Below, piece after piece: positions 1-56,491 of a stretch of DNA of 56,491 nucleotides; position 1 is the first letter of the stretch, and each line of letters begins with the position of its first letter. This stretch comes from Opitutaceae bacterium (lineage in GTDB: Bacteria; Verrucomicrobiota; Verrucomicrobiia; Opitutales; Opitutaceae), in contig JANQKU010000139.1 in the NCBI GenBank assembly GCA_028280955.1, positions 1-56,491 on the forward strand. Reading direction: 5' to 3'. Under the pieces are notes generated by a model, which was not told where the DNA came from, did not search any database, and saw only the letters and a list, made by a program, of their open reading frames with translations. A program made the translations under genes and the position numbers.

Positions 1-1
1 A

Positions 2-1477: not shown

Positions 1478-1609
1478 AGAACTAAATCGCTATTCGTCAA
1501 CTTCAACACCCTTGCTCGGGGAAGGCGGCCACTAGATGCTGTTGTTGAAATTCATTCTATCAGGAAAGCAATTCCAATCATCGAAAAGCTCAAAGTTTCA
1601 GTAGCTTGT

Positions 1610-3475: not shown

Positions 3476-3613
3476 AATGCCTCCACTTGCCAGCGACAAA
3501 AAGAGGTCAAATTTCCCACGATCAACTTTTGAACAGCCATTCATCAGCGCGTTTTCCATTGAACTATTTTATCAGCGAACTATGCTTAACAAACTTCAAA
3601 TCCGCTACTACAA

Positions 3614-4996
3614 ATGACCGCTAAAAAAGGACTTAGGCCCCTAGCGTCTAAATATGGTCGTCGATGGGTTGTATTTGATACCGTTCTGGGTTTTATCGCA
3701 ATGAGAGTTTCTCTCAGCTTGAGCCCATATGTCGATGTCTACTACGCGGCAAATCAGATATTCGTATCAATCGCTTTTGGATTCATACTCGCAGGCTGTC
3801 TTCGACTCGCGGGATTAAATACTCATCGCTTTGAACATGTTTTAAGCTATTACGAAATTATCATATCTACCATTATTGGTACATTAGCCGCCTTTTTGAT
3901 AGTCTCTCTAATGGTTACATTCACTCACGTCCATGTATTCGGTCGCTACGTAGTAATAGGCACTCTCTTGATATCCTCCCTCGGTATCATCACTCAGAGA
4001 TCCTTGGTAAAGCTCTTCTTAGGTAAATCGCCAATAAAATTATTTCTGCTGGGGTCCACTCCTGCAGCTCTCAAACTCATTGAACGCGTTCATGGCGATA
4101 AACATTTCCATTTAGTAGGTGTCGCATGTTCCGATTTTCAAGATGAAGATAACCCAAAAACAGCAACGGTGGAATATCAGATAGAGGACCCGATTTCGCT
4201 ATGTAAATATGTAAAAGATAATGATGTAGACCTAGTCGTGAGTTGCTACGGTGAGCAGGTTCCTGAAGCAATCTGTCAAGCGATCGAGAAAATGCCATTT
4301 TACGGAATAGACGTAATCAACAAGGGGTATTTCGTGGAAACTTACTTCAGAGAGATCAGTGTGGAATTCCAAAACTATCACTGGCTCACTTCCCACTCCT
4401 TCAGGCCAACGGAAGAATCCCATCTCGTTCTCAAACGTGGATTTGATATCGTCTTTGGAGCATTGATTGCCCTCCTGATCCTCCCCCTTTTTCCACTTTT
4501 TGCCCTCATCATCAAACTCGACAGTAAAGGCCCTGTCTTTTACACTCAAACTCGTGTCGGTTACCTTGGGAGGCCATTCAAAATCATCAAATTTCGCTCC
4601 ATGCGAACCGACGCAGAAACCGACGGTGCCGTCTGGGCAACACAAAAGGATCCACGAGTGACAAGGTGGGGCAATTTTATGAGGCGAACCCGAATTGACG
4701 AACTCCCCCAAATTTGGAATGTCTTGAAAGGAGAGATGTCGCTCATTGGTCCCCGACCAGAGCGACCAGAGTTCGTTGAAGAACTCAAAAAGGAAATACC
4801 ACTTTATGAGTGGCGTTACCTAATCCCTCCAGGATTAACAGGATGGGCTCAAATCCGATATAAATACGGTTCCACTGTCGAAGATGCCAAACGCAAACTC
4901 CAGTACGACCTCTATTACATCAAAAGAGCCTCTATCGCACTCGAAATTCAAATTCTACTGCAAACCATTCCCCTAATCATGAAAGGTAGTAGGTGA
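3614..4996 (+). CDS. Polyprenyl-phosphate hexose-1-phosphate transferase (WbaP/EpsB-like initiating sugar transferase)
   Basis: N-terminal TM block plus a conserved bacterial sugar-transferase domain: 'KRGFDIVFGALIALLILPLFP...DSKGPVFYTQTRVG..GRPFKIIKFRSM...DPRVTRWGNFMRRTRIDELPQIWNVLKGEMSLIGPRPERPEF'. Confidence 0.9.
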   Translation: MTAKKGLRPLASKYGRRWVVFDTVLGFIAMRVSLSLSPYVDVYYAANQIFVSIAFGFILAGCLRLAGLNTHRFEHVLSYYEIIISTIIGTLAAFLIVSLMVTFTHVHVFGRYVVIGTLLISSLGIITQRSLVKLFLGKSPIKLFLLGSTPAALKLIERVHGDKHFHLVGVACSDFQDEDNPKTATVEYQIEDPISLCKYVKDNDVDLVVSCYGEQVPEAICQAIEKMPFYGIDVINKGYFVETYFREISVEFQNYHWLTSHSFRPTEESHLVLKRGFDIVFGALIALLILPLFPLFALIIKLDSKGPVFYTQTRVGYLGRPFKIIKFRSMRTDAETDGAVWATQKDPRVTRWGNFMRRTRIDELPQIWNVLKGEMSLIGPRPERPEFVEELKKEIPLYEWRYLIPPGLTGWAQIRYKYGSTVEDAKRKLQYDLYYIKRASIALEIQILLQTIPLIMKGSR

Positions 4997-5182
4997 TACC
5001 TCTGAACACGAATTTGGCGAATTATTTACTCAATCCCAGAATATCGAATAATGCATAGCTCAATTCACTCGAAACGATTTCGTAACAAGATTAACATTTT
5101 GTTTGAAAATTATTGAACAAAATAAACACTTTATAGGATGAGCTTATTGAAATTGGTGTCAGCTTCCTGAAGACAACCGACT

Positions 5183-5193
5183 GCGGTAGCGTG
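5183..5193 (+). promoter_or_regulatory. ops-like element (GCGGTAGCGTG) in the 281-nt leader upstream of wzm
   Basis: Matches 11 of 12 nt of the enterobacterial ops sequence GGCGGTAGCGTG. It lies on the coding (non-template) strand about 85 nt upstream of the wzm ATG. Confidence 0.4.
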
Positions 5194-5277
5194 TAAAAAA
5201 TTCAAATACTCGAGACCTAACTTCCATCTCCCATCTTCGATCTACCAGCTCCGAACTCCCAACTACCATTTTAAACC

Positions 5278-6111
5278 ATGTCAGAGACATCGGAAAAAAC
5301 ACTTCTAATCAAACCGACCAAAGGTTTCTCTAGCCTTGGGCTTCACGAGCTGTGGGAATTTCGTGACTTACTCGGGTTTCAAATTCTCAAGGAGATAAAA
5401 GGCAAATACCGTCAAATGGCTCTCGGTCCCTTATGGATCGTTCTGCAACCTTTGATCAATATGATCATTCTTAGTCTTGTTTTTGGGAAGGTAGCGAAGC
5501 TCGATGCTGGAGGTATTCCATACCCTCTGCTCACCTATTCCGCTCTCATTCCCTGGACCTTCTTTCAAAATGCGTCCCAACTCTCATCCGCTTGCCTGGT
5601 CACAGAAATGAACGTCATTTCTAAGGTTTATTTCCCACGAATGATTCTCCCAGCCAGTTACATCATTGGCCGAATTGTAGATTTCTTAGCCACATTCAGT
5701 ATTTTAGTCATCATGTTAATTGCCTGGGGTTACTACCCTAGCCTTAAGTGGCTTGCGATACTCCCCTATCTCGCCCTCGCCGTTTTCACAACCTTGGCGA
5801 TAAGTACCTGGACAGCTAGTCTCACTGTTCAATTCCGCGACATGAAATTCCTCGTCCAATACGGCACACAAGCTGCCATGTACATTACCCCAGTTGCCTA
5901 CCTCGCTACGAATTTCCCCCCTGAATGGCTCTGGCTCCTCAAACTCAACCCCATGTTCTACGTATGCGAAGGCTTTAGGTGGAGTCTAATTGGGGTCGGC
6001 CAAGGACCTGAACTCTATATGCTCTGGCCTATTAGCATTGTGGTTATCATGACCATCAGCGGCATGTTTATGTTCCGCAAAACCGAACGCACAATCGTGG
6101 ATTTATTGTAG
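5278..6111 (+). CDS. wzm: ABC-2 type polysaccharide export permease (Wzm)
   Basis: Six-TM ABC-2 permease with the typical N-terminus 'LWEFRDLLGFQILKEIKGKYRQMALGPLWIVLQP'. Followed by wzt. Confidence 0.85.
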   Translation: MSETSEKTLLIKPTKGFSSLGLHELWEFRDLLGFQILKEIKGKYRQMALGPLWIVLQPLINMIILSLVFGKVAKLDAGGIPYPLLTYSALIPWTFFQNASQLSSACLVTEMNVISKVYFPRMILPASYIIGRIVDFLATFSILVIMLIAWGYYPSLKWLAILPYLALAVFTTLAISTWTASLTVQFRDMKFLVQYGTQAAMYITPVAYLATNFPPEWLWLLKLNPMFYVCEGFRWSLIGVGQGPELYMLWPISIVVIMTISGMFMFRKTERTIVDLL

Positions 6112-6195: not shown

Positions 6196-6552
6196 ATGCA
6201 ATTTGAAGATCTAGAAGCGTGGCAAAAGGCACGATTACTTGTATCTAACATTTATTCCATTACTCGTTCAGACCAGTTGAAAAACGATTTTGGATTATCT
6301 TCTCAAATCCAAAGATCAGCAGTTTCAACAATGACAAATATCTCAGAGGGCTTTGAAAGAACCCATATTCAAGAGAAAATTCAATTTTATAACATTGGTA
6401 GGGCATCATGCGGAGAAACTCGTTCGTTACTCTACGTCATACAAGACAACTACGAGTATCTTTCAGAGCAAACATCAACATTGATCAGAGAGTGCATTTC
6501 AGTTGGCAAGCTCATTTCAGGATTAATCAATTCCACCGAAAAGAGAAAATAG
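6196..6552 (+). CDS. Four-helix-bundle protein (23S rRNA intervening-sequence protein / Avd-like family)
   Basis: 'FEDLEAWQKARLL...IY..T...........QIQRSAVS...NISEGFER......FYNIGRASCGETRSLL' is the family signature. Family length favours the internal ATG at 6196 over the ORF-track start at 6136. Confidence 0.85.
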   Translation: MQFEDLEAWQKARLLVSNIYSITRSDQLKNDFGLSSQIQRSAVSTMTNISEGFERTHIQEKIQFYNIGRASCGETRSLLYVIQDNYEYLSEQTSTLIRECISVGKLISGLINSTEKRK

Positions 6553-6570
6553 TACAGCCACTCCTATCTC

Positions 6571-6596
6571 CCATCTTCTAACTACCATCTTCAATC
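6571..6596. repeat. Right arm of the 26-bp imperfect inverted repeat flanking the four-helix-bundle gene
   Basis: CCATCTTCTAACTACCATCTTCAATC. Contains two CCATCTTC copies and overlaps the leader motif shared with the wzm upstream region. Confidence 0.5.
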
Positions 6597-6599
6597 ACA

Positions 6600-7862
6600 A
6601 TGAGCACTAGCGAAACAGTGATCCGCGTTGAAAACCTTGGCAAACGCTATCGTATCGGTACCAACCAGCCTCCAGCTAAAACTTTAGGAGGAAAGCTTAA
6701 AAATACGCTAACCTCCCCTTTCGAGTGGCTGGAGAAACAAATGCGTCCTCCCACCGAAGAAGAAACACTCTGGGCTCTTAATGACGTATCTTTTGAAGTA
6801 AACAGAGGTGAAGTAGTAGGTGTCATCGGTAGAAATGGAGCAGGAAAATCCACCCTTCTTAAAATCCTCAGCCGCATTACCGAACCCTCCATCGGATTCG
6901 CCGAAATAAGAGGTAGAGTTGGAGCCCTGCTTGAGGTGGGCACCGGTATGCATCCAGAGTTAACCGGACGTGAGAACATCTACCAAAACGGCTGTATTCT
7001 CGGAATGCGGAAGTGGGAAATTGACAAAAAGTTTGATGAAATCGTCGATTTTTCAGGCATCAAAAAATTCATCGATACACCTGTTAAGCGTTATTCTTCG
7101 GGACAAAGAGTACGCCTCGGATTCGCCATCGCTGCCCATCTTGAACCGGAAATACTTGTAGTGGATGAAGTCTTGGCAGTTGGTGATATCGAATTTCAGA
7201 ATAAATGTCTTGGCAAAATGCAAGATATAGCTGACCGAGGAAGAACAGTTCTATTTGTAAGTCATAATATGGGTGCAGTTGAAAATCTCTGTTCAAGAGC
7301 AATATTATTAAATAATGGAACGATTTTTGAAAACGGCCCCGTCAATGACATACTGAAAAAGTATACTGGTTTTATAAATAATAAGCAGATATTAAATGCA
7401 TTATCAACAAATAAGGATCGTTCAGGAAACGGCATGCTAAGGATTAGAAATGTTAAAATTTTATCGAACCAATCATTAAGAACCAATTGTTCTTTCACAT
7501 TATCTATTTCTGTAGAAAATTGCTCAAAGAAACCTATATCTAAGATTAGCTTAGGTTATTCAATTTCAACATCAACTGGAACTATTTTGTTTATATCTTA
7601 CAGTGATTATTCAGATATTTATTTTTCCTGCCAAAGAGAAAACATTGAGTTTCACATAGAAGTTCGAAAATTGCCATTAACGCCTGGTCATTACGAGATT
7701 TCGGCTAGATTATTAGGTGAGAATATTGAGTTAGATTGGCCGAGGTATCCCGTGCTAAAATTTGAGATTTTAAACTCTGGAATACATGATGAATACAAGA
7801 ATCCACATAGTGGAAAAGGCCCCATAAGCTTATCATCTCACTGGAAAATCATCAGCAACTAA
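6600..7862 (+). CDS. wzt: Polysaccharide ABC exporter ATP-binding protein (Wzt) with extra C-terminal (glycan-binding-type) domain
   Basis: Walker A 'GRNGAGKST', signature 'YSSGQRVRL', Walker B 'ILVVDE'. About 170 aa follow the NBD, as in Wzt proteins that recognise capped O-glycans. Confidence 0.9.
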   Translation: MSTSETVIRVENLGKRYRIGTNQPPAKTLGGKLKNTLTSPFEWLEKQMRPPTEEETLWALNDVSFEVNRGEVVGVIGRNGAGKSTLLKILSRITEPSIGFAEIRGRVGALLEVGTGMHPELTGRENIYQNGCILGMRKWEIDKKFDEIVDFSGIKKFIDTPVKRYSSGQRVRLGFAIAAHLEPEILVVDEVLAVGDIEFQNKCLGKMQDIADRGRTVLFVSHNMGAVENLCSRAILLNNGTIFENGPVNDILKKYTGFINNKQILNALSTNKDRSGNGMLRIRNVKILSNQSLRTNCSFTLSISVENCSKKPISKISLGYSISTSTGTILFISYSDYSDIYFSCQRENIEFHIEVRKLPLTPGHYEISARLLGENIELDWPRYPVLKFEILNSGIHDEYKNPHSGKGPISLSSHWKIISN

Positions 7863-7866
7863 GGAT

Positions 7867-8598
7867 ATGTTTAAAACAATAAAGACAGCCGTGCACGCAG
7901 CAAAGAATGCAATATTACAAATAAATAGAAAAAAAGCATTTTTTAAGCACGTATATAATTACAATTACAATAGCGTTATTCTAGATATATCCCACGTTGA
8001 TACTAATATAAAGAATAGTTTTTTTGACAATTCATACGAAAGAAGTGAATTAGAATTAGCAAAAATCTATGTTTCAAGTGATGACCATATTTTGGAACTT
8101 GGATCAGGTTTAGGTTTTATATCTCTTTTTCTATTAAAAGAGAAAAATATAACAAATTATTGCGTTGTGGAGGCTAATCCAAAAACTGTTAAAAAATTGG
8201 AAATAAACTATTCAAAAAACAATCGGGTTCCAAATCTAATACAGTGCGCGGTGTCTAACACTACTGGCAAAATTCAATTTCTTGACAGCAATTCGTTTTG
8301 GTTAAACAGAATCAGTTCGACTGACTCAAGTAATACTATTGAAGTTGAGTGCGATACCTTACCAAATATAGTTTCAAAATCGGGTTTAAAACCTACAGTT
8401 ATAATATGTGATATTGAGGGTGGTGAATTAGTTATTAAACCCACTGACATACCAATAACAGTTAAACTGATAATTATAGAAATTCATCCTACCTTAGTAA
8501 GCTATCCTAAAGCTTATAAGCATTTATCACATTTTATAACAGACGGATGGCAAGTGAAAGATGTGCGCGCAAATACATTCGCACTAATACGCAATTAA
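7867..8598 (+). CDS. FkbM-family SAM-dependent methyltransferase
   Basis: 'ILELGSGLGFISL' SAM-binding motif and 'ICDIEGGE' motif typical of the FkbM family. Confidence 0.7.
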   Translation: MFKTIKTAVHAAKNAILQINRKKAFFKHVYNYNYNSVILDISHVDTNIKNSFFDNSYERSELELAKIYVSSDDHILELGSGLGFISLFLLKEKNITNYCVVEANPKTVKKLEINYSKNNRVPNLIQCAVSNTTGKIQFLDSNSFWLNRISSTDSSNTIEVECDTLPNIVSKSGLKPTVIICDIEGGELVIKPTDIPITVKLIIIEIHPTLVSYPKAYKHLSHFITDGWQVKDVRANTFALIRN

Positions 8599-8634
8599 AT
8601 CAATTTGCTAAAAATCAATAAAACCAAAATTTTT

Positions 8635-9546
8635 ATGAAAATTTCTGTCATCATTTGCACGCATAACCCACTAGAGGAATACTTAAAACAAGTATTAGAA
8701 GCTTTGAATCAGCAAAACTTACCTAAGGAACTATGGGAATTGCTAGTAGTAGACAACGCCTCAAAAGAAGACGTATCAGTGATTTACGACCTCGCATGGC
8801 ACAACAACGCTCGACACATAAGAGAAGACAATTTGGGCTTAACACCAGCTAGGTTAAGGGGAATCAAGGAATCGGTAGGAGATTTGCTTGTCTTTGTAGA
8901 TGATGATAATGTTTTGTCTCCCAACTATCTTGAAACAGTAATCAATATATCAAACGAATGGCCAAAAATTGGAATATGGGGTTCGGGAAGAATATCTCCG
9001 ATCTTTGAAAAGGAACCTGAAGAATGGACTAAACCTTATTGGGGGCAATTGGCAATCCGTAACAATACGTCGGACTATTGGTCAAACTTGCTGACCTACA
9101 ATGATTCATATCCTTGTGGTGCAGGATTATGTATTAGAAAAGAATGTGCTACCGAAGTATCAAAATTGTTTGAGTGCGATGTAACCGCACTTTCTCTGGA
9201 TCGGAAAGGTTCCTCCCTATCATCTTGCGGGGACAGTCATATGGTGTTTCTTACAGTTAAATCTGGTTACGGGTCGGGAGTTTTTGTAGACCTAGAGTTA
9301 AAACATCTTATACCCAGTAATCGAATTACTCTTGAGTATCTTTTGAACCTATCAGAATCGATAAATTACACTTCTCATGTGATGAATAAGCTACAGGGGA
9401 AGAATTTTCCTACGCGAATAGGACTGCAACATTACATTAATAAACTATTTAAAATATCTAGAATCAAAGGTATTGAAAGAAAATTCCTCATCCGCGAATA
9501 CACAGCATTTGAGCGTTTTCTAAAGGAGTCAGCAAAAGGTCAATAG
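8635..9546 (+). CDS. Glycosyltransferase family 2
   Basis: 'MKISVIICTHNP.......L..L..Q........LVVDNAS.ED' and 'FVDDDN' (DxD). ATG at 8635 preferred over the upstream TTG. Confidence 0.85.
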   Translation: MKISVIICTHNPLEEYLKQVLEALNQQNLPKELWELLVVDNASKEDVSVIYDLAWHNNARHIREDNLGLTPARLRGIKESVGDLLVFVDDDNVLSPNYLETVINISNEWPKIGIWGSGRISPIFEKEPEEWTKPYWGQLAIRNNTSDYWSNLLTYNDSYPCGAGLCIRKECATEVSKLFECDVTALSLDRKGSSLSSCGDSHMVFLTVKSGYGSGVFVDLELKHLIPSNRITLEYLLNLSESINYTSHVMNKLQGKNFPTRIGLQHYINKLFKISRIKGIERKFLIREYTAFERFLKESAKGQ

Positions 9547-47213: not shown

Positions 47214-48587
47214 ATGACCACCACCCCAGCCCCTCAGATATCTTTGTTACTCGCAGATGACGATGCGGGCATCATCACTTCTGGTAAAATGCTTTTTGAA
47301 GATGAGGGTTGGTCCGTAAGCGTCGCGAAATCGGTCGCAGAGGTGATTCGTAAGGTCGAAAAGCAGGAGTTCGATGTTGCGTTGGTGGACATGAACTACA
47401 CGCGCGACACCACCAGCGGCGCTGAAGGACTTGAGCTGATTTCCAAAGTCCACGAGATTGACCCGGATCTACCCATACTCGTCATGACGGCGTGGGCGAC
47501 TATCGACATCGCAGTCGAAGCTCTCAAGCGCGGCGCTAGTGATTTCATTCCCAAGCCTTGGGAAAACGACAGGGTGGTTCAAAAAGTCTCCAAAATGGCG
47601 CTGAACACACGTTCCCTACGCAAGGGACGCCTTCTCCAGGCGGAGGCCGAGCTCCACCGACAAGAAAATATTCCTGACGACTTCATTGCCCACTCACCCG
47701 CCATGCAAAACGTCATGCAAATCGTCAACAGCATCGGTCCATCCGAAGCGAATGTAATGATTCTCGGAGAAAACGGCACTGGCAAAAGCGTGATCGCGCA
47801 GTTGATTCACGGAATTTCCCATCGAGCGGAAGGTCCTTTTATCAGTGTCAACATGGGCGGTCTCGCAGAGGGGCTTTTTGAAAGTGAGATCTTTGGCCAT
47901 GTAAAAGGAGCATTCACCGACGCCAAGGCAGACCGAGCTGGCAGATTCGAGATCGCACGCGGCGGCACCATCTTCCTCGATGAGATTGGAAACATCACTT
48001 TAAACCAACAAAACCGTCTGCTCCGGTTGCTTGAAACGGGCGAATTCGAACGTGTTGGTTCCTCCCGCACGATCAAAACAGACGCTCGTGTGATTTCGGC
48101 CACCAACGCTCCGCTCAAAGAGAAAGTCGCAGATAAGTCCTTCCGAGAGGATCTCTACTACCGGCTCAACACGGTCATCATCGACATGCCACCGATGCGG
48201 GACCGTCGGGAGGATGTCCTTCCCCTCGCCCACCATTTCCTCTCCCGCCTGAATCGCAAGTATCGCAAATCGATCCGCAAATTCAGTTCACAGGCGGAAA
48301 AAGTGCTGCTCGACTACCACTGGCCGGGAAATGTGAGGGAGATGAATCACGCCATCGAGCGAGCAGTCCTCATGTGCCACACCGACGAGATCCACGCACA
48401 GCAACTCATGCTGGAAGCGACGACTTCCAGCCCGGCAGACATCGAATCCATGAGCATGGAGGACATCGAGAAGCTCCTGATCCAAAAAGCCCTCAAACGC
48501 AACGGAGGCAACGTCACCGCAGCCGCCAAACAACTCGGTCTCAGCAGAGCCACCTTCTACCGCCGTTTACAGGACTACGGAATATGA
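47214..48587 (+). CDS. Sigma-54-dependent response regulator (NtrC family: REC-AAA+-Fis HTH)
   Basis: 'LLADDD...DVALVDMNY', 'GENGTGKS', 'GAFTDA', 'ETGEFERVGSS', C-terminal 'AAKQLGLSRATFYRRL'. Confidence 0.9.
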   Translation: MTTTPAPQISLLLADDDAGIITSGKMLFEDEGWSVSVAKSVAEVIRKVEKQEFDVALVDMNYTRDTTSGAEGLELISKVHEIDPDLPILVMTAWATIDIAVEALKRGASDFIPKPWENDRVVQKVSKMALNTRSLRKGRLLQAEAELHRQENIPDDFIAHSPAMQNVMQIVNSIGPSEANVMILGENGTGKSVIAQLIHGISHRAEGPFISVNMGGLAEGLFESEIFGHVKGAFTDAKADRAGRFEIARGGTIFLDEIGNITLNQQNRLLRLLETGEFERVGSSRTIKTDARVISATNAPLKEKVADKSFREDLYYRLNTVIIDMPPMRDRREDVLPLAHHFLSRLNRKYRKSIRKFSSQAEKVLLDYHWPGNVREMNHAIERAVLMCHTDEIHAQQLMLEATTSSPADIESMSMEDIEKLLIQKALKRNGGNVTAAAKQLGLSRATFYRRLQDYGI

Positions 48588-49927
48588 GAAAAAACAGTAG
48601 CTTCTTTCGCTTCATCCCGCTACAGCTCCAGCTATTCATTCTCGGGATTTTGCTAGCGGTCCCGGCGCTGCTTATCATTTGGTATCTTTACACGACCAGG
48701 CGACCCAGCGACGAACTCATGGCCGTTTTCTGGTTTGCCTACCTCCTCTGGAGCGCAGGCATTCTTTTTCAGATGTGGCGCGCCTGCCACGAGCCCTTTT
48801 ACACACTTACCAACCTCGTTCGCTCCCTGCACCAGGGCGACTACAGCCAGAGGCTCATTCAGTACCCCAAATGGCACGCCATCGGATACCTTCACGAGGA
48901 ACTCAACACGCTCGCCGACGTCCTTCAGAACAACCGCATCGCGACCATCGAATCCGTGAGGAGATTTCAGTACCTCATCGACCAACTTGAGATCGGTGTC
49001 GTCGCATTTGATGAGCAGAAAAAGCTCACCATGATCAACTCGCACCTTTCCAAATATTTCGGCAAGCATTCTTCCGAACTTAATGAAAAACACATAAGCG
49101 ACCTTTCACTGGAATCCCTCTGGGAATGCAAAAGCGGCCGCACTTTGTGGCTCACGTTCGAGCAACGCACTTCACGTTTTCTGATCCACAGTTCCGTTTT
49201 CAGAGACGATGGAAAACCTCATCGACTCTTTCTCCTCACGGACGTCAATGCACCTCTTCGTGAAGAAGAACGCTTCGCGTGGAAGCGCCTCATCCGAGTC
49301 CTCGGGCATGAGCTCAACAACTCCCTCACCCCCATCATCTCACTCACTTCCTCTCTGAAATCCCGTTTTGAAAAGCTCGACATGCCTGAGCAGCAAAACG
49401 AATCCACGATGGAAGCGCTCGACGTCATTCGGGAACGCGCTCTTGGCATGAATCGCTTCGTGGAGGACTATTCCAAACTTGCGAAACTCCCCGAACCGAA
49501 CCGTCAGATATCTTCGCTCACTGAGATCGCACGAAAGCTGCGACAACTGATGGAGACTAACCACTTCAAAGTCGTCGAAGGTCCCGATTGCGAACTCCAC
49601 GTCGACACCGATCAGATCACCCAACTTTTCATCAACTTAATCAAAAACGCCGAGGAATCTGTAGATCCACAAAACGGCGAAATTATGATGACGTGGCGCC
49701 GCGAATCGACGGACGCAGTCATCACCGTCGACGACAACGGCCCCGGCATCGAAAAACTGGAAAACCTCTTTGTCCCCTTCTTCTCCACCAAACCCGGCGG
49801 CAGCGGAATCGGCCTCGTACTCTGTCGTCAAATCGCCGAAGTCAACGGCGGCTCTATCGACATCCAAAACCGCGATTCCGGCGGCTGCCGCGCGACCATC
49901 TGTCTGCCTATTTACTCTGAGAAATAG
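48584..49927 (+). CDS. Sensor histidine kinase (NtrB-like partner)
   Basis: ATGA overlap with the regulator stop. Two TMs, H-box 'LGHELNNSLTPI', 'DDNGPGI', 'GGSGIGLVLCRQI'. The longer ORF-track start at 48374 overlaps the regulator out of frame and is rejected. Confidence 0.85.
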   Translation: MRKNSSFFRFIPLQLQLFILGILLAVPALLIIWYLYTTRRPSDELMAVFWFAYLLWSAGILFQMWRACHEPFYTLTNLVRSLHQGDYSQRLIQYPKWHAIGYLHEELNTLADVLQNNRIATIESVRRFQYLIDQLEIGVVAFDEQKKLTMINSHLSKYFGKHSSELNEKHISDLSLESLWECKSGRTLWLTFEQRTSRFLIHSSVFRDDGKPHRLFLLTDVNAPLREEERFAWKRLIRVLGHELNNSLTPIISLTSSLKSRFEKLDMPEQQNESTMEALDVIRERALGMNRFVEDYSKLAKLPEPNRQISSLTEIARKLRQLMETNHFKVVEGPDCELHVDTDQITQLFINLIKNAEESVDPQNGEIMMTWRRESTDAVITVDDNGPGIEKLENLFVPFFSTKPGGSGIGLVLCRQIAEVNGGSIDIQNRDSGGCRATICLPIYSEK

Positions 49928-50168
49928 AAGTTCATTTATTAATGAACAAGCGGGTTTTCGCAGTTTCGATATTTTTATATTTCATCAAATCAAGACTCTA
50001 CTGACAGCAAGATCATAATCAAATATCCTGTTGATAATCAATATCTTACAACTTTTATTTGCATTAGAATAATACTTCCTTAAAATCCAACTTAATGCCT
50101 CTAAACACCTTTCAAATTCTCCAATATACCCGCTAAAAAGTGGGTTATAACTACTGTTGTAAACAAAA

Positions 50169-50582
50169 ATGAAAAAAATGAAGATAGAAGTGTCTTTGAA
50201 GCAGGCTTGCACTTCCCTTTTCAAAAATCAGCCGAACCTCTATTCCTTTACCAGTCTCACTGGCCAAACCGAATGGAATTTGACGCATCATCTTTCCAAT
50301 GAGATCAGAACGTTTTTTGAAGATTACGATTGTGATCTCGATATATCAAAAAGGAATTTAGGAAATAAACGCCCAGATATCGTAATTCACAAACGAGACT
50401 CGAATACCGACAATCTGTTGGTGGTCGAAGTTAAAAGAAATGGAAAAAAATCAAAAATAAATGATGACATCAAAAAGATTAAAATAGACTGGTTTAATTC
50501 GGACCTTTCTTATCATTTTGGGGCGACGATTAATTTGAAAGATGATATGGATTTTGAAGTGAAAGTCTTTGAAAATAAATAG
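50169..50582 (+). CDS. Cassette 1: small PD-(D/E)xK nuclease-fold protein (hypothetical)
   Basis: 'KRPDIVIHKR(7)LLVVEVKR' fits the D...(D/E)xK restriction-endonuclease-like motif. 137 aa, followed directly by an attC. Confidence 0.5.
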   Translation: MKKMKIEVSLKQACTSLFKNQPNLYSFTSLTGQTEWNLTHHLSNEIRTFFEDYDCDLDISKRNLGNKRPDIVIHKRDSNTDNLLVVEVKRNGKKSKINDDIKKIKIDWFNSDLSYHFGATINLKDDMDFEVKVFENK

Positions 50583-50649
50583 TTGTAACAAGACGGCGGA
50601 GAGGAACTGCCAGACCTCCGGCCTCTTGTCCCTCACCTTAACGTTCGCA
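50583..50649 (+). repeat. attC site 1
   Basis: TTGTAAC-AAGACGGCGGAGAGG...CCCTCACCTTAAC-GTTCGCA. Arms pair imperfectly with bulged bases. Shares AACAAGACGG and GTCCCTCACCTT(A/G)ACGTT with attC 7. Confidence 0.7.
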
Positions 50650-50657
50650 AAAAATAA

Positions 50658-51350
50658 ATGCCTCAACGAATCACAGGTAAGCTCCTCTCTCAAAAGTGGA
50701 AAGTTGATGTAAAGCATGCCCTCTACAGTCATGATGGAACATGGTACCATCGCCTTAAAGATTTTCCTGGAGCATTGTTTGATTCATCTGGTTTCGTGAT
50801 ATTCAACACAAAGGATGAGTTTGAAGGGTGTCCAAGTTTGAGACTGAAGAAAGATTGCGGTTGCAGGTTTGGCATTTCGACCATCGACGGATATGTCAGA
50901 GTTCGAAACTTCGAAGCGTCTGATGTCAAAGATGATCAAGAAATTGAAAGAAAAGAGACTTTCGTTTCGAGGATTATTAGAGATACGAACCTCAGCAGAG
51001 AATTGAAATTAGAGTATGAAGATCAGTGTCAGATCTGTGGTGTCACAGTCAAATTATTCGACGGAAGTTATTCCGAGGCTCATCATATCATTCCTTTAGG
51101 ATCACCACATAATGGAACAGATAACAAAGATAATTTGATAGTGGTTTGTCCCACGTGTCACGTAAAGATGGATTATTTTTCTATCCCTCTTTCATTGATG
51201 GATTTGAAAGTTCTAGGTCATACCATTTCAGAAGAATCTGTAGAATATCACAACAATCAATACGCGAACAAGATAGGCGAGAGGGATTCTGAACCGCTCC
51301 GCGTGTCATCAATCCCTCCCTTTGAGGTTGTCTCCAAAAAAAGAATCTAA
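50658..51350 (+). CDS. Cassette 2: HNH endonuclease with uncharacterised ~130-aa N-terminal domain (McrA-like architecture)
   Basis: 'CQICGVTV(10)EAHHIIPLGSPHNGTDNKDNLIVVCPTCH' HNH/His-Me finger. The 3' end of the ORF runs through attC 2. Confidence 0.85.
   Translation: MPQRITGKLLSQKWKVDVKHALYSHDGTWYHRLKDFPGALFDSSGFVIFNTKDEFEGCPSLRLKKDCGCRFGISTIDGYVRVRNFEASDVKDDQEIERKETFVSRIIRDTNLSRELKLEYEDQCQICGVTVKLFDGSYSEAHHIIPLGSPHNGTDNKDNLIVVCPTCHVKMDYFSIPLSLMDLKVLGHTISEESVEYHNNQYANKIGERDSEPLRVSSIPPFEVVSKKRI
51263..51333 (+). repeat. attC site 2
   Basis: CGCGAAC-AAGATAGGCGAGAGGGATT...AATCCCTCCCTTTGAG-GTTGTCT. R'' GCGAAC is the reverse complement of GTTCGC at the start of this cassette (50643-50648). 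Confidence 0.7.
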
Positions 51351-51394
51351 ACGAATAAAGTCCTCAGAATTTCATATAACTAAACCAAGAAAAC

Positions 51395-51859
51395 ATGAAA
51401 AAAACAATCATCCTTCTAGCATATATTCTCCTGGCCAGCATACTAAATGCTGGTAGTGGCAGTGCAACTGCTCCTTATTGGCAAAAACTCGAAACGTTTC
51501 AATTAACGACAATCTCGCTTACAAACATAAGTAGTGAAAATGTTACTGTCTTTATCATGCTAAAAGACATAGATGGTATCGCCTACGATGAAAGCTCTGA
51601 AAATGGAACAAACATTGAAATTGGGTCAAATTTTTCGGGTGATCCTCTGTCTAATAACGGAGCCTTGCTTGAAGCTGGAAAAACGGGAACATTAACGATT
51701 AAGGATACCGGTAATCTGAAAACCGGCTACAGCACAATTGAGTGGGTTTCAAACGGAAGTAACATTAGAGCCCTTGTGGGAGTAACGACTCATGTTGTTA
51801 AAGGAGACGCCTCACATGACTTCAATCACATGTTGATAAACAACGGATTGCCTTTCTAA
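51395..51859 (+). CDS. Cassette 3: secreted hypothetical protein
   Basis: Signal peptide 'MKKTIILLAYILLASILNAGSGSA' and a beta-rich mature part. No family recognised. Confidence 0.6.
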   Translation: MKKTIILLAYILLASILNAGSGSATAPYWQKLETFQLTTISLTNISSENVTVFIMLKDIDGIAYDESSENGTNIEIGSNFSGDPLSNNGALLEAGKTGTLTIKDTGNLKTGYSTIEWVSNGSNIRALVGVTTHVVKGDASHDFNHMLINNGLPF

Positions 51860-51868
51860 AAAAAGACC

Positions 51869-51934
51869 CGACAACAAGGTGCTTGAGGTAATCCTGCTCA
51901 CTTGTTCGCGGATTACCTCAGCTAGACATTAGTG
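51869..51934 (+). repeat. attC site 3 (core G replaced by A)
   Basis: CGACAAC-AAGGTGCTTGAGGTAATCC...GGATTACCTCAGCTAGAC-ATTAGTG. Perfect 10-bp inner stem. R'' GACAAC complements GTTGTC at 51327-51332. R' reads ATT instead of GTT. Confidence 0.65.
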
Positions 51935-51966
51935 TGAAAGATTTCTCAAATTCGTCATAAATATTC

Positions 51967-52058
51967 GGTCAAAGCAGTACTGACCACGTTGTCAAAGGGG
52001 TTTTGAACGAACGGTCAAAGCCCATTTGACTGAGTGGTCAAAGAGCATTTGAAAAAGA
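51967..52058 (+). repeat. Four tandem 23-bp direct repeats (iteron-like) inside ORF-less cassette 4
   Basis: Units start at 51967, 51990, 52013 and 52036: GGTCAAAGCAGTACTGACCACGT / TGTCAAAGGGGTTTTGAACGAAC / GGTCAAAGCCCATTTGACTGAGT / GGTCAAAGAGCATTTGAAAAAGA. Each has an internal GTCAAA..TTTGA(C/A) dyad. Confidence 0.75.
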
Positions 52059-52175
52059 GTAAAAATTGAAAAGAAGCCACTCCTCTGTTAAAAAGAATTG
52101 ATCCCGTACCACGCTAAAAGTTTATTGGTTCTGCTCCACGAATCACATCAACCTCATCCCCAATTTTACAAAAAG

Positions 52176-52234
52176 CACTAACAAGACGGTGGGTTAAACT
52201 CTGCTTTGCTCCGTTCACCACATTGACGTTGGCA
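52176..52234 (+). repeat. attC site 4
   Basis: CACTAAC-AAGACGGTGGGTTAAAC...GTTCACCACATTGAC-GTTGGCA. R'' CACTAAC is the exact reverse complement of (G)TTAGTG at the start of cassette 4. Confidence 0.65.
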
Positions 52235-52285
52235 GAAATAATAGAAGACTTGAGAAATCTTTGGAATTCCACGATATTTAAAAAT

Positions 52286-52492
52286 ATGAGCATCACTGAA
52301 ATAAAAAAACTCCCCGTCGGCGAACGGATTGAGGTGATGGAGCAGATCTGGGATTCTTTGAGAGATGAAGATCAGGAAATATCGTCACCTGCCTGGCATG
52401 GCGAAGTATTGGAGGAAAGAAGAAAAAAAATAGAGGAAGGAAAAGCTACCTTCATCACCCTCGATCAGCTAAAATCTAGATTTCGCAGATGA
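52286..52492 (+). CDS. Cassette 5: addiction-module antitoxin (TIGR02574-like)
   Basis: 'MSITEIKKLPVGERIEVMEQIWDSL...SPAWHGEVLEERRKKIEEGKATFITLDQL' pattern. 4-nt overlap with the toxin ORF. Confidence 0.7.
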   Translation: MSITEIKKLPVGERIEVMEQIWDSLRDEDQEISSPAWHGEVLEERRKKIEEGKATFITLDQLKSRFRR

Positions 52493-52794
52493 AAATAAAA
52501 GAAGTCATTATCCTCGATGACGCCTCCGAAGATCTTGAAGCAGGCAAGCTTTTCTATGATGAAAGAGAATTTGGTATTGGTGATTACTTCATCGATTGTC
52601 TTTTATCAGATTTAACCTCCCTCAAACTCTACGCAGGAATTCATAATTTCCACTTCGGTTACCAACGGATGCTATCAAAATGATTTCAGTTTGCGATTTA
52701 CTACGACATTGAAGATGAGATTGCCCGAGTCATAGCTATTTTGGATATGCGGATGAATCCTGACAGCATCCGAAAAATCCTCAAACAAAGATAG
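52489..52794 (+). pseudogene. Cassette 5: RelE/ParE-family toxin interrupted by an in-frame TGA (52681-52683)
   Basis: Same-frame continuation after the stop encodes 'FQFAIYYDIEDEIARVIAILDMRMNPDSIRKILKQR*'. The TGA aligns with the conserved Arg in 'RRFPYTIIY' of the paralogue at 53127, consistent with CGA>TGA. Confidence 0.7.
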
Positions 52795-52795
52795 A

Positions 52796-52859
52796 CGCCA
52801 ACAAGTAGGTTAAGTAAATGCCGAGCACGCTTGCCATCTACTCACCTCAGACGTTAGGA
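52796..52859 (+). repeat. attC site 5
   Basis: CGCCAAC-AAGTAGGTTAAGTAAATG...CATCTACTCACCTCAGAC-GTTAGGA. R'' GCCAAC complements GTTGGC at 52228-52233. Confidence 0.7.
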
Positions 52860-52908
52860 AAAAACAAAAATGATTTGAGATAATTTTACGATTCAAGATA
52901 ATCAAACC

Positions 52909-53130
52909 ATGGATGCAGCAATATTAGAAAAGGAAGCTCTTTCACTTCCTGAATCAGCCAGAGCAGTTTTGGCAGATCGACTAATCGAAAGTATATCTCC
53001 TATTCCCCCCACAATTTTAGACTCATGGATAGAAGAATCAGAAAGTAGATTAAAGGCATTTGAACGAGGAGAAATTGAAGCCGTTGACGGAGAGGAAGCT
53101 TTGAGCCTATTAAAGAATAAATATAAATGA
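52909..53130 (+). CDS. Cassette 6: addiction-module antitoxin (TIGR02574-like)
   Basis: 'EALSLPESARAVLADRLIESI.......LDSWIEESESRLKAFERGEIEAVDGEEAL'. 4-nt overlap with the toxin gene. Confidence 0.75.
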   Translation: MDAAILEKEALSLPESARAVLADRLIESISPIPPTILDSWIEESESRLKAFERGEIEAVDGEEALSLLKNKYK

Positions 53131-53423
53131 ATTTCAGATTTCTTACTCCAGCCCTCAGTGAGATATCTGACGCCTCAGAGTATTATGAAAATGAAGTATC
53201 GGGACTAGGTATTGATTTCATTGACGAAGTCGATTCAACGATACACCGAATTTTGAAATATCCTCGTGCTTGGAGTAAGATCTCGGATGAATTTCGTCAC
53301 TGCAATTTAAGAAGATTTCCATATACGATCATTTACCATCAACCTCAAGAAAACGAAGTCCTCATAGTTTCGGTATTCCATCAAAGCAGAAAACCGAACT
53401 CATGGAAAAACAACCTAAAATAA
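53127..53423 (+). CDS. Cassette 6: RelE/ParE-family toxin
   Basis: 'A..EI.DA..YYE.......DF..EV...I..I..YP.AW.......R...LRRFPYTIIY......VLIVSVFHQSRKP'. Confidence 0.8.
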   Translation: MNFRFLTPALSEISDASEYYENEVSGLGIDFIDEVDSTIHRILKYPRAWSKISDEFRHCNLRRFPYTIIYHQPQENEVLIVSVFHQSRKPNSWKNNLK

Positions 53424-53471
53424 TACTAACAGGAATTCTGAACCGCTCCGCTCCTCACCCTGGCGTTGGGT
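53424..53471 (+). repeat. attC site 6 (short, 48 bp)
   Basis: TACTAAC-AGGAATTCTGAACCGCTCCGCTCCTCACCCTGGC-GTTGGGT. Shares the 18-mer ATTCTGAACCGCTCCGC with attC 2. Arms pair poorly, so it may be degenerate. Confidence 0.5.
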
Positions 53472-53485
53472 AGATATAATCGAAA

Positions 53486-53893
53486 ATGTACTCATTCATA
53501 GCAGATTTCATTCTCCTGCTTCATTTTGCATTCATTGTTTTTGTTGTTGGTGGAGAGATCTGCGTGATTGTCGGATTCTTTAGGAATTGGTCCTGGGTAC
53601 GTAATTTCAAATTTCGCATCTTCCATGTTTGCGCCATTGGATTTGTAGTTGTCCAAAGTTGGGTCAATCAGGTATGTCCGCTCACAATCTGGGAGAACGC
53701 ACTTCGAAATGCTGCGGGTGAAGAAAAGTATTCTGGGACTTTCATCGGACATTGGGTTGGGCAAATAGTTTTCTATGACGTACCTCAGTGGATTTTTGTA
53801 ACTGCATACTCGATGTTTGGAGCATTAGTTATTCTTACTTGGATTTGGGTAAGACCTAGACGAATCAATAGGAAAACTTCTGAGGATAATTGA
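53486..53893 (+). CDS. Cassette 7: DUF2784-like membrane protein
   Basis: 'DFILLLHFAFIVFVVGGE', 'VCPLTIWENALRNAAGE', four TM segments. Confidence 0.7.
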   Translation: MYSFIADFILLLHFAFIVFVVGGEICVIVGFFRNWSWVRNFKFRIFHVCAIGFVVVQSWVNQVCPLTIWENALRNAAGEEKYSGTFIGHWVGQIVFYDVPQWIFVTAYSMFGALVILTWIWVRPRRINRKTSEDN

Positions 53894-53899
53894 TTCATG

Positions 53900-53969
53900 G
53901 CCCAACAAGACGGTCGAGGTGAGGAACCGTAAAGGCTACGCCCTCTGGTCCCTCACCTTGACGTTGTAT
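53900..53969 (+). repeat. attC site 7
   Basis: GCCCAAC-AAGACGGTCGAGGTGAGG...CCTCACCTTGAC-GTTGTAT. TCGAGGTGAGG pairs with CCTCACCTTGA (one G.T) with bulged bases nearer the R boxes. R'' CCCAAC complements GTTGGG at 53465-53470. Confidence 0.75.
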
Positions 53970-54199
53970 AAAATGAAGTAGGATACCTGGTCTTCGACAA
54001 GCTCGTGTGCGAATCCGTGGATGATTCCCATCACGCTTAGGATTCTGATGATTCGATACTTTGGCTGGCTCACTCCGACGTAGACATTAAAAACTGAATA
54101 GAATGAACCACGGAAAACACTGAAATCACAGAAACGATTTTTTTTCACAGTCGTTACCCAACAGCATATAAAATTCCGTGCCTTCGGTGGTTCCATTCA

Positions 54200-54264
54200 G
54201 TACAACCCGTCAGAGTAATCCATTAATCCGCAGTCAGATCATTCTCTCACAGCATTTGTTTCAA
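54200..54264 (+). repeat. attC site 8 (last in array)
   Basis: GTACAAC-CC-GTCAGAGTAAT...ATTCTCTCAC-AGCATTT-GTTTCAA. R'' TACAAC complements GTTGTA at 53963-53968. L arms pair with one mismatch and one bulged T. Confidence 0.55.
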
Positions 54265-54418
54265 ATTGAGATCATCGCGTCTCATTTTGATACAGCTGTG
54301 CTTTCATTCTAAATCCTTACCAAATTCCTCCATTTCCTTCTCATTGATTCAGAGTCAGTTACAAATTTCGGAACGAATTGGTATGCATCCTGTTTAATTG
54401 TGAGCTAACATCACAAAC

Positions 54419-55675
54419 ATGGACATCGAACGCCCCGAAAGATACGCAAGAAAACAACGGCAACGCCGCATCCTCTACTCCGTCGCTGGAGTGATCGTTG
54501 TGGCTCTGTTTGTCTATGTGTTCACCCTCGCCAGTCCTCTCCCTCGAGTAGAGCGCAATGAAATCTGGCTCGGTGAAGTGAAACGCGGCGACATGCTTCG
54601 CAATGTGCGAGGGCTTGGTCGACTCATCCCAGCCGACATGCGCTGGATCACCTCCCAAACTTCAGGTCGTGTGGAAGAGAAATTCGTGAAGTCCGGAGCA
54701 CTCGTTCAGCCGGACACGGTCATTCTTCAACTTTCAAATCCACAACTCGAACAACAGTACCAAAACGCAAAGCTTGAGCTGGAAGCGGCTGAGGCTGAGT
54801 TGATCAGCACTCGCGTGCGTCTCCAGAGCGACTTACTCTCGATGAAGAGTAACTACACACGCCTCAAGGAGCAAACCGAGATGGCCGAGCTTGAGGAAGA
54901 AATCAACGACCAGCTCTTCGAAGATGGTCTCGTCTCCGAACTCAATCGCAAACGTTCCAAACTCAGCGCCCAGCACCTTCGTTCCCGCCTCGCGATGGAA
55001 ACAGAGCGTCTCAACTTTCAGGAACAAGCCATCGAGCCCCAACTCGCGACACAGAAGACTTACGTAGATCGTGCACAGGCAAGACTCGATTTACTGCAGA
55101 CTCAAGTCGACGCGCTCAAAGTCCGCGCGGGGTCTAACGGAGTAGTCCAGCAACTCGACTTAGAACAAGGCATGCAGGTCGCCGAAGGGCAGCAAATCGC
55201 ACTGGTATCGGATCCCCAAAATTTGGATGCGATGCTCGAGATTCAGGAAAGCCAGGCAAGAGAAGTTCGCATTGGACAAAGAGCGGAGATCGACACCCGC
55301 ACATCCGGAATCGTTCAGGCGTCAGTGACGCGAATCGATCCAAACGTCGAACGCGGCATCGTTCGCGTGGATCTGGAGTTTACAGACAGTTTGCCTGAAG
55401 GTTGCCGTGCCGACCAAACGGTGCAAGGGAACATCGAACTACAGCGACTGGATGACGTCATCTACGTGGATCGTCCTTCCACTGTGAAGGAAAACACCAA
55501 AGCATCCGTTTTCGTCATGAGTGCCGATGGAAAACAAGCACTGCGCACGCCAGTGGAATTTGGTCGATCTTCAGTGACCTTAGTCGAAATCGTATCCGGA
55601 CTTCGCCCAGGCCAACAGATCATCCTTTCCGACTCATCCAGATGGCAATCCTCTGAAGCTATCGAGATACGCTAA
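54419..55675 (+). CDS. HlyD/MacA-family periplasmic adaptor (membrane-fusion) protein
   Basis: N-terminal TM, long coiled-coil ('QQYQNAKLELEAAEAELISTR...'), beta-barrel C-terminus. Followed by a MacB/LolD-type ATPase. Confidence 0.85.
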   Translation: MDIERPERYARKQRQRRILYSVAGVIVVALFVYVFTLASPLPRVERNEIWLGEVKRGDMLRNVRGLGRLIPADMRWITSQTSGRVEEKFVKSGALVQPDTVILQLSNPQLEQQYQNAKLELEAAEAELISTRVRLQSDLLSMKSNYTRLKEQTEMAELEEEINDQLFEDGLVSELNRKRSKLSAQHLRSRLAMETERLNFQEQAIEPQLATQKTYVDRAQARLDLLQTQVDALKVRAGSNGVVQQLDLEQGMQVAEGQQIALVSDPQNLDAMLEIQESQAREVRIGQRAEIDTRTSGIVQASVTRIDPNVERGIVRVDLEFTDSLPEGCRADQTVQGNIELQRLDDVIYVDRPSTVKENTKASVFVMSADGKQALRTPVEFGRSSVTLVEIVSGLRPGQQIILSDSSRWQSSEAIEIR

Positions 55676-55911
55676 ATTTTAAAATCAAGATTCAAAATTA
55701 CAGAAAACAAAAAGGTGATAATACAGCACAGACACTTTAACAGGAGAGTCCGGCAACTGCCTGATCATTGCAGCATGCGAGACTTAAAGAACGGCAATGA
55801 CGGAGCATTGCCCTCCAGATAAAATCAGCTCAGATACCAAATTTTTACAACCAACCCCCCTAAACATCTTCAACAGCAGTCCCAATCTACATCACCACAA
55901 CCGACATAGAC

Positions 55912-56491
55912 ATGAGCACCACAACGACAGAACCAGCCGAAAACCAAACGGAAACCGCAGCAAAGGCGAAACACATCATCCAGCTAGAGGATGTCTGTCG
56001 TGTCTTCCATACCGACAGGATGGAAACGCGTGCACTCAACGGCATCTACCTGAACATCGACGAGGGCGATTTCCTTTCGATCTCAGGCCCGTCCGGTTGC
56101 GGCAAGTCCACTCTACTCTCCATCATCGGTCTCCTCGACCGCAGCAGTAGCGGCCGGTATCTTCTCGAAGGACAGGAAGTGCACGCCATCCACGGCCGCG
56201 CCAGAGCGTTACTGAGGAACCGGACGATCGGATTTATCTTTCAGAACTTCAATCTCATCGGCGAAATGAATGTCGCCGAGAACGTCGAGCTCCCACTGGT
56301 TTACCGCGACGTGCCCTACAAGCAACGCAAAATCATGGTGAAAGAAGCTCTTGAACAGGTTGAGATGGACCATCGCGAGGGGCATTTACCGAGCCAGCTT
56401 TCCGGTGGACAGCAACAACGTGTGGCAGTCGCGCGAGCCCTTGTTGGAAAACCCCGAATTCTACTCGCAGACGAGCCAACCGGTAACCTCG
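55912..56491 (+). CDS. ABC transporter ATP-binding protein (MacB/LolD family), 3'-partial at window edge
   Basis: My translation from ATG 55912: '...[37 protein letters not shown]...[22 protein letters not shown]...[31 protein letters not shown]'. Not in the ORF track because no stop is reached. Confidence 0.9.

Follow-up and report, generated by a model that had tools for sequence, protein, structure and literature searches.

Knowledge of integrons derives for the most part from Proteobacteria, and the origin of cassette arrays that carry no integrase gene of their own is still debated. The substrate of the integron integrase, IntI, is the folded bottom strand of an attC site, which is cut between G and TT. 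The stretch of DNA considered here (the window, which is a whole contig of 56,491 bp, JANQKU010000139.1) holds, 2.2 kb from its right end, a low-GC block between the stop codon of a histidine kinase gene (48584-49927) and macA (54419-55675). The block, whose GC content is 0.37-0.41 as compared with about 0.50 on both sides, is made of short co-oriented open reading frames (ORFs), each with an imperfect palindrome of 48-71 nt, xxxxAAC...GTTxxxx, behind it; judged by sequence, the host lineage is Verrucomicrobiota (Opitutales). In our opinion 49931-54258 is very probably an array of integron cassettes without its own integrase, that is, a group of clustered attCs without an integron integrase (CALIN), presumably founded at a genomic GTT and served by an IntI supplied in trans.

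The definition of CALINs is taken from Cury et al. (2016), who presented IntegronFinder (PMC4889954). An earlier note on this DNA, made from the sequence alone, had supposed that such arrays are poorly described in a lineage that it guessed but did not name; integrons of Verrucomicrobiota are little studied, but integrons and integron integrases were already annotated there (Cury et al. 2016, PMC4889954), and the locus is a further CALIN. Loot et al. (bioRxiv 10.1101/2022.09.11.507474) reported that IntI can insert cassettes at GWT sites of the genome, a route proposed as a source of CALINs and of single attC sites lacking integron integrases (SALINs).

The locus resembles the known CALINs in having at least two co-oriented attCs that delimit cassettes with no intI within 4 kb, in its small size (about eight cassettes) and in its cargo, mostly of unknown function together with toxin-antitoxin pairs, with neither antibiotic-resistance genes nor flanking insertion sequences. 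It departs from the usual CALIN in its Opitutales host, in both ends being fixed at GTT by relatives with an empty site, and in the replacement of cassettes in a sister strain, details that are seldom to be had for a CALIN. With the genomic ('attG') insertions of Loot et al. it shares an insert bounded by G|TT at both ends, a non-att intergenic site, and cassettes co-oriented with the flanking genes, which are possibly transcribed by read-through from the kinase operon and could be expressed in this way. That work, however, was experimental and dealt with single cassettes and IntI1 in E. coli, whereas the present array is natural, comprises several cassettes and has a conserved leader of 226 bp; moreover, the attG consensus motifs beyond GTT may be specific to IntI1.

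Sedentary chromosomal integrons such as the Vibrio superintegron are likewise chromosomal, with toxin-antitoxin cassettes, family-specific attCs and strain-variable content, but the array, having about eight cassettes, no intI and heterogeneous attCs, falls short of them in size and homogeneity. The earlier note had put forward a mutual similarity of the attCs as in that class; the family motifs are confined to the array, and the attC loops are heterogeneous. What the sequences compared below show directly is that the sites are attCs, that the junction rule holds, that relatives have empty sites, that strains vary and that no intI is present locally. The locus thus represents a clean, well-bounded array in Opitutales with an attC family common to Verrucomicrobiota and Lentisphaerae; it brings neither a new mechanism nor resistance genes, and may serve as a natural illustration of how CALINs arise.

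The attC sites and the junction rule

Eight sites of 48-71 nt were recovered where the earlier note had placed them, all on the plus strand, delimiting units that measure, from G|TT to G|TT, 487, 684, 601, 300, 625, 612, 498 and 295 bp, in agreement with the range of 295-684 bp claimed before. Their core is regular: xxxxAAC starts all eight and GTTxxxx ends seven, S3 ending in ATT, while the distal bases follow RYYY/RRRY loosely.

The motif common to S1 and S7 was searched in 185,579 species genomes, which gave 20 matches, 13 of them in Verrucomicrobiota or Lentisphaerae; the remaining seven have no dyad and their number fits a rough chance estimate. A covariance model, termed R1, was built from 15 attCs of other genomes, none of them from this locus, and was run with filters off. 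R1 matched six sites on one strand with E-values from 5.8e-13 to 3.5e-5 and with end points exactly as previously noted: S1 at 50583..50649 (TTGTAAC...GTTCGCA; 47.4 bits, E = 5.8e-13), S4 at 52176..52234 (CACTAAC...GTTGGCA, a short attC of the Luteolibacter type; 43.9 bits, E = 8.3e-12), S7 at 53900..53969 (GCCCAAC...GTTGTAT; 43.5 bits, E = 1.1e-11), S2 at 51263..51333 (CGCGAAC...GTTGTCT; 32.4 bits, E = 4.8e-8), S5 at 52796..52859 (CGCCAAC...GTTAGGA; 27.5 bits, E = 1.9e-6) and S3 at 51869..51934 (CGACAAC...ATTAGTG; 23.7 bits, E = 3.5e-5). Nowhere else in the 56-kb window was there a significant match.

The attC architecture attributed to all eight sites is therefore borne out, by R1 and by covariation, for S1-S5 and S7, but not for the other two. 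S6 (53424..53471, 48 nt; E = 0.23 with R1) is truncated and lacks 12 nt on the L'' side and in the spacer, whereas its orthologues in two related contigs, L022 (10786-10845) and L002 (5392-5451), have the full 60 nt; S6 is probably not recombinogenic, in which case cassettes 6 and 7 would be fused. S8 (54200..54264, GTACAAC...GTTTCAA), an atypical or decayed terminal attC, is not matched by R1: it has a 7/9 dyad, no 3' spacer and a spacer geometry unlike that of the other sites, and its R'' box, which matches the S7 junction in 3/4 positions, reads GGACTAC in L022 and is thus not conserved. The sound attC sites are six in number, and S8 is doubtful.

Classical attCs such as attC-aadA7 have the same layout as R1, in which, on the bottom strand, a spacer of 6 nt, a 9-bp L box having one base bulged out and a spacer of 5 nt lie in this order between xxxxAAC and GTTxxxx. 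The resulting family structure (a 3-bp R box, unpaired spacers of 6 and 5 nt, a 9-bp L box and one extrahelical base) fits S1-S5 and S7. On the bottom strand the bulged L-box base is C, in the place where the classical attCs of class 1 carry G/T. Compensatory changes were seen in every one of the nine L-box pairs across 41 members of the family, and the share of paired cells is 92% as compared with 74% in shuffles; the alignment was fitted to R1, so that the pair counts lean in the model's favour. As to the bottom-strand folding suggested by the earlier note, the R and L boxes and the extrahelical base appear in the family model, while the z-scores of single sites are mostly weak. By minimum free energy (MFE), a weak measure for imperfect hairpins, z <= -1.9 was reached only by S3, S7 (z = -2.0), S2 and S8. 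A search of Rfam, at the gathering threshold and at E<=1, matched no family, attC being absent from that database, and no attC of the array's family was found in the viral contigs searched.

Short imperfect palindromes lying directly 3' of ORFs, with mostly weak MFE z-scores, would also suit an island rich in toxin-antitoxin genes that contains no integron at all, only terminator hairpins or intergenic palindromes like the repetitive extragenic palindromes (REPs). However, the family is confined to the array within 56 kb: the pattern AACAAG..CACC..RMCGTT occurs four times in the window, always in the array, where 0.01 occurrences are expected, and AACAAGNNGG occurs five times, always at the locus (in four recognised attCs and in the leader). 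The coding strand shows no excess of terminator-like sites, and whole cassettes are swapped between strains, as described below.

The junction rule is also unexpected of REPs. The four bases after the GTT of one site are the reverse complement of the four before the AAC of the next site in 22/28 positions, as against 8/32 for complementarity within a site (permutation p = 3e-5); the S5-to-S6 junction matches in 3/4. The rule is perfect in the array linked to an intI (16/16, L008), nearly so in L021 (23/24), holds for 13/16 positions in L010 and was also found in L022. These counts uphold the earlier claim that each junction complements the next attC downstream and not its own, a pattern that REP repeats would not give, and we regard the explanation without integrons as extremely improbable. 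Being symmetric under reverse complement, the rule shows cassette-like units and not their orientation; the orientation of the array is derived from the ORFs, which end at the sites or within them, and from the relative whose array is linked to an intI.

Integrases and arrays in related genomes

In agreement with the earlier note, which saw no tyrosine recombinase gene in the window, a tblastn search with the L008 IntI (E<=10) detected no intI or fragment of it in the window, L022, L002 and L010, and a scan for the box-II motif gave no tyrosine recombinase signal in the same four sequences. The L002 contig continues 2.4 kb beyond the right end of the window, also without an intI. A complete integron (intI, attI and the promoter Pc) is absent from the contig, which has no intI.

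The family to which the attCs belong is linked to an integrase elsewhere. A contig of a Luteolibacter metagenome-assembled genome (MAG), JBDSNC010000010.1 (L008), encodes a 425-aa tyrosine recombinase (1996-3273) whose score on TIGR02249, 'integron integrase', is 340.7 bits (cut-off 265), and its gene is oriented divergently from five attCs of the window's family; through this linkage the family would be one that an integron integrase uses. The L008 complete integron and the locus have the same attC family (AAC-AAGAC-GGTGGAGGCA...TGCCTCACC-TTTGAC-GTT) and agree in the junction rule and in how the ORFs are oriented to the attCs; they differ in the divergent intI, which the window does not have, and in the attCs of the window being more heterogeneous and partly degraded. 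A protein search with this IntI returned close homologues from Verrucomicrobiales only, and in metagenomes its homologues number more than 6,000, many of them already annotated as integron integrase. A weaker intI-like gene adjoins attCs of the same family in L051 (JGI Ga0075163_10017018; 6510-7625, 8187-8907); its product is 36% identical to the L008 IntI and reaches 237 bits on TIGR02249, below the cut-off of 265.

A second cassette array is present in a close relative, at 1-5733 of JAKSBQ010000360.1 (L010, Opitutales MAG.200), beside tRNA-Leu(CAA) and a gene read by eye, which we take to be arginine decarboxylase. It comprises at least five attCs, with no intI on the contig. One of these attCs is 90% identical to S1 and sits behind a different ORF, that is, it belongs to a different cassette; the next cassette likewise starts TTCGCAAAAA and ends CGCGAAC, and its HNH protein differs from that of the window.

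Empty sites, boundaries and exchange of cassettes

Four more distant relatives (L024, L025, L028 and L029; kinase 58-60% and MacA 63-70% identical) have no array: the kinase gene is followed directly by macA, macB and an outer-membrane protein gene, with spacers of 152-182 nt (L024 9342-9523, L025 9345-9505, L028 4368-4539, L029 1324-1488). Enhancer-like dyads, TGTTTCA-N-TGAGA ... TGTTTCA-N4-TGAAACA, stand about 155 nt upstream of macA in the window and in the four relatives. In the window they mark the native right flank at 54257..54294 of the plus strand (TGTTTCAaatTGAGA ... GTCTCAttttGATACA), at the same distance from macA as in the relatives. In L025 the first dyad overlaps the kinase stop, and in L024 it is found downstream of the stop by up to about 30 nt, but in the window it starts at 54257; consequently the whole stretch between the kinase stop and 54258 has been inserted. 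The sequence begins to resemble the empty-site spacers at S8, whose G|TT (54258/54259) lies within the dyad and forms the right end of an insert extending from about 49931 to 54258; on the left, the whole insert probably starts at G|TT 49930/49931, 3 nt past the kinase stop. As reconstructed, the empty site reads TAGAAG|TTTCAAATTGAGA, and the insertion is limited to one species-level lineage.

Two contigs from two metagenome assemblies of the European Nucleotide Archive, L022 and L023, represent a sister strain with flanks 96% identical and a kinase protein 98% identical to those of the window. The 226-bp leader is the same, but the three cassettes behind it are different (encoding 174 aa; 106 aa; and 124 aa together with ParE and Phd), and then come the distal five, cassettes 4-8, which these contigs share with the window. 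Homology on the left ends at GTTGTAAA (50156-50163), so that the left breakpoint coincides with the first-cassette junction G|TTGTAA at 50156..50162 (plus strand; alignment and blastn against both contigs), and the presence or absence of cassettes varies at cassette boundaries. Where the variable segment ends on the right, the window has the R'' box CGACAAC and L022 has TCAGAAC, each fitting the preceding junction of its own strain, as expected if an attC travels with its upstream cassette. The comparison of related strains that the earlier note had recommended thus reveals a locus that is not invariant, and its view of a CALIN-type array between a two-component operon and a macAB-like operon agrees with the empty sites of the relatives, with the variation between strains and with there being no intI nearby. 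Together, the empty sites and the sister strain provide unusually direct natural evidence for a location at a genomic GTT and not at an integron platform; the content of the array has turned over recently, which fits the experimentally proposed route of genomic insertion.

We propose that each unit is a promoterless cassette beginning with TT and ending in an attC (R''-L''...L'-R'). The first cassette or cassettes would have entered the genomic GTT just past the kinase stop, within the enhancer upstream of the sigma54-type macAB operon, by recombination of an attC with a genomic site, the attG route. The array would thus have been founded, and then remodelled, by IntI-type recombination in trans, with an integrase that is encoded elsewhere in the genome or was transient, and later insertions and excisions at G|TT junctions would have yielded the strain-specific proximal cassettes. 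Action of IntI in trans, origin by the attG route and continuing activity are what we infer from the arrangement. More tentatively, the locus might be a natural attG case in which capture at a GTT was followed by exchange at the fixed junction 50156, that is, a capture platform without integrase that is served in trans.

The same differences between strains might have arisen without any integrase since the founding, in a real but inert array altered by homologous recombination, slippage or import of a divergent allele. Recurring attCs of one subfamily offer substrates for RecA (S3 and a3 of L022 are 82% identical over the span from R'' to G, S4 and a2 87.5%, and the S2 and S6 loops 95%), and attCs evolve faster than cassette bodies. 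Decay points in the same direction: by its sequence the array is partly decaying in the window strain, since S6 is truncated, the crossover triplet of S3 is ATT (GTT at the same position of L022 in the alignment), a toxin gene has a nonsense codon and the sites at both ends are degenerate. On the other hand, the left breakpoint is exactly at a G|TT, to the left of which there is no homology of the attC type, and the R'' boxes co-vary with the preceding junction of their own strain, as site-specific exchange predicts; we consider the inert array possible but rather doubtful. In the shared segment (window 51869-54264 against L022 9226-11346) the attCs are 74-97% identical, with indels, and the cassette bodies 97-99%, which is consistent with hairpin-prone attCs being hotspots of mutation or slippage.

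The variable cassettes are preceded by an AT-rich leader of 226 bp without ORFs (49931..50156, plus strand), which starts at G|TT 49930/49931, is 90% conserved in L022 and is absent from the empty-site spacers. Its start at 49930-49954, just past the kinase stop, reads GTTCATT-TATT-AATGAAC-AAGCGGG, a perfect inverted pair of the R'/R'' type followed by the 5' motif of the family. The AATGAAC-AAGCGGG at 49941-49954 has the form of the 5' half of a ghost attC, and the leader contains the only AACAAGNNGG of the 56 kb outside the four recognised attCs; the stretch 49930-49954 could represent either a ghost attC at the insert's left edge or the hairpin of a terminator. Further on, TTACAAC (50046-50052) is the exact complement of GTTGTAA at 50156-50162 and may be the R'' box of a decayed site, or due to chance. 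As a junction, C|TTACAA at 50046 was ruled out, as the strain whose cassettes differ has this stretch conserved; of the two left boundaries between which the earlier note hesitated, only G|TT at 50156 proved to be the point where the strains diverge. R1 has no match in the leader, and folding of 243 nt gave no structure (z = -0.4). The leader fits neither simple model, and we read it as decayed cassette material.

Could this leader be the surviving attI of a complete integron, ending in GTTGTAA and still taking cassettes, whose intI was later deleted from an intI-attI platform? That CALINs can originate by losing intI is accepted (PMC4889954); both strains have the leader conserved, and they differ immediately past its terminal G|TT, the position expected for attI-proximal insertion. 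Nevertheless, tblastn found no fragment of intI, and the block starts 3 nt past the kinase stop, which leaves only 226 bp for a platform. Furthermore, the left edge consists of a G|TT and an attC-like 5' half, suggesting decayed cassette material, and the leader is unlike the region from intI to the first cassette in L008 and the leader of the L010 array: comparison with both gave chance 7-14-mers only and no shared attI. A lost integron is therefore unlikely in our view.

Several points weigh against the reading we prefer, a CALIN founded at a genomic GTT and served in trans. Within this genome the search for intI covered the contig only, so action in trans is unproven. The difference between the strains could be due to RecA-dependent deletion or exchange between similar attCs instead of IntI, and the right breakpoint, at S3, is not placeable to the base, attCs being generally more diverged than cassette bodies. 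R1 is rich in sequence and mainly shows membership of one attC family of the Planctomycetes-Verrucomicrobia-Chlamydiae (PVC) group; S8 fails this model and S6 is truncated. Single-site MFE folds of the bottom strand are mostly unremarkable, with z from +1.4 to -3.3, and the R'' box of the cassette 1 attC (TTGTAAC) matches the start of its own cassette (TTGTAA) in 2/4 variable bases. Finally, a conserved 226-bp leader before the variable junction is not predicted by insertion of a single cassette at a genomic GTT.

Cassettes and neighbouring genes

The cargo of the array is typical of cassettes: toxin and antitoxin genes occur as two pairs, beside an HNH nuclease, a DUF protein and cassettes without ORFs; all eight cassettes are on the plus strand, and the first three are absent from L022. 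Cassette 1 (50157..50643) carries an ORF of 137 aa and unknown function (50169-50582), and cassette 2 (50644..51327) an HNH endonuclease ORF of 230 aa (50658-51350; Pfam HNH, E = 7.6e-10). The proteins of these two proximal cassettes, both specific to the strain, are nuclease-like and weakly match models of anti-phage defence: the sequence of the former suggests a PD-(D/E)xK-like nuclease motif and weakly matches PADLOC PD-Lambda-3_A (E = 5e-5), and the latter gives weak PADLOC matches to type IV restriction endonuclease (REase) and ZorE (E = 2e-7 to 2e-6). The HNH ORF crosses its own attC, S2, and has its stop 23 nt within cassette 3, so that the C-terminus of the protein depends on the neighbouring cassette. 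Cassette 3 (51328..51928) has an ORF of 154 aa (51395-51859) with no family match, whose N-terminus, read by eye, looks signal-peptide-like.

Cassette 4 (51929..52228), common to the window, L022 and L023, is 300 bp long and has no ORF; it contains four GGTCAAAG repeats and, at 51981-52040, a hairpin with 29-nt arms (RNA fold z = -2.4). It did not match any Rfam family and could be a small RNA or a protein-binding cassette. Cassette 5 (52229..52853) encodes an antitoxin (about 52286-52492; Pfam Unstab_antitox, E = 1.3e-16) and a ParE/RelE-like toxin pseudogene (52489-52794) with an in-frame TGA at 52681-52683; comparison of the translations showed that the L022 copy is intact, with 101 aa. In cassette 6 (52854..53465) the pair is intact, with an antitoxin at 52909-53130 (Unstab_antitox, E = 5e-13) and a ParE toxin at 53127-53423 (ParE_toxin, E = 5e-8), and the cassette is 99.3% identical to that of L022. 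Cassette 7 (53466..53963) encodes a DUF2784 membrane protein (53486-53893; Pfam E = 3.9e-30). Cassette 8 (53964..54258, 295 bp) differs from L022 by indels of 48 nt and 9 nt and appears, from this comparison, to be probably non-coding; an 86-aa ORF on its minus strand was rejected as coding because the differences from L022 are mostly amino-acid-changing. Look-ups of the exact cassette proteins returned contigs of the same sample or species only and no other contexts, and scans for promoters and terminators did not rise above the shuffled background on the coding strand.

On the left, the array is flanked by the gene of an NtrY/NtrB-like histidine kinase (48584..49927, plus strand; Pfam HisKA/HATPase_c, homologues P0001-P0120), whose start overlaps the stop of a sigma54-activator response regulator gene (47214-48587). 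On the right, macA (54419-55675; Pfam HlyD) is preceded by a sigma54-like element, TGGTAT...CTGT, at 54379-54393; a -24-like element, TGGCA(T/C), about 40 nt upstream of macA is conserved in the window and the four relatives. The conservation of the dyads and of this element in the window and the four relatives suggests, on sequence grounds, that the adjacent NtrC-type regulator and kinase may drive macAB from a sigma54 promoter. In the host species the array lies between the regulator operon and the site that is probably its target. The window from 53092 to 56491 is 95.6% identical to L002, a contig of 'Opitutales bacterium MAG.200', whose MacA is 99% identical to that of the window.

At the other end of the contig, 1-32000 is occupied by a large polysaccharide or O-antigen-type cluster, with genes for Wzy-like proteins, an initiating sugar transferase, a Wzm/Wzt ABC transporter, many glycosyltransferases of families GT2, GT4 and GT11, and asparagine synthase. 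The GC content of its core, at 7-27 kb, is markedly lower (0.34-0.39), which suggests a horizontally exchanged, serotype-like region.

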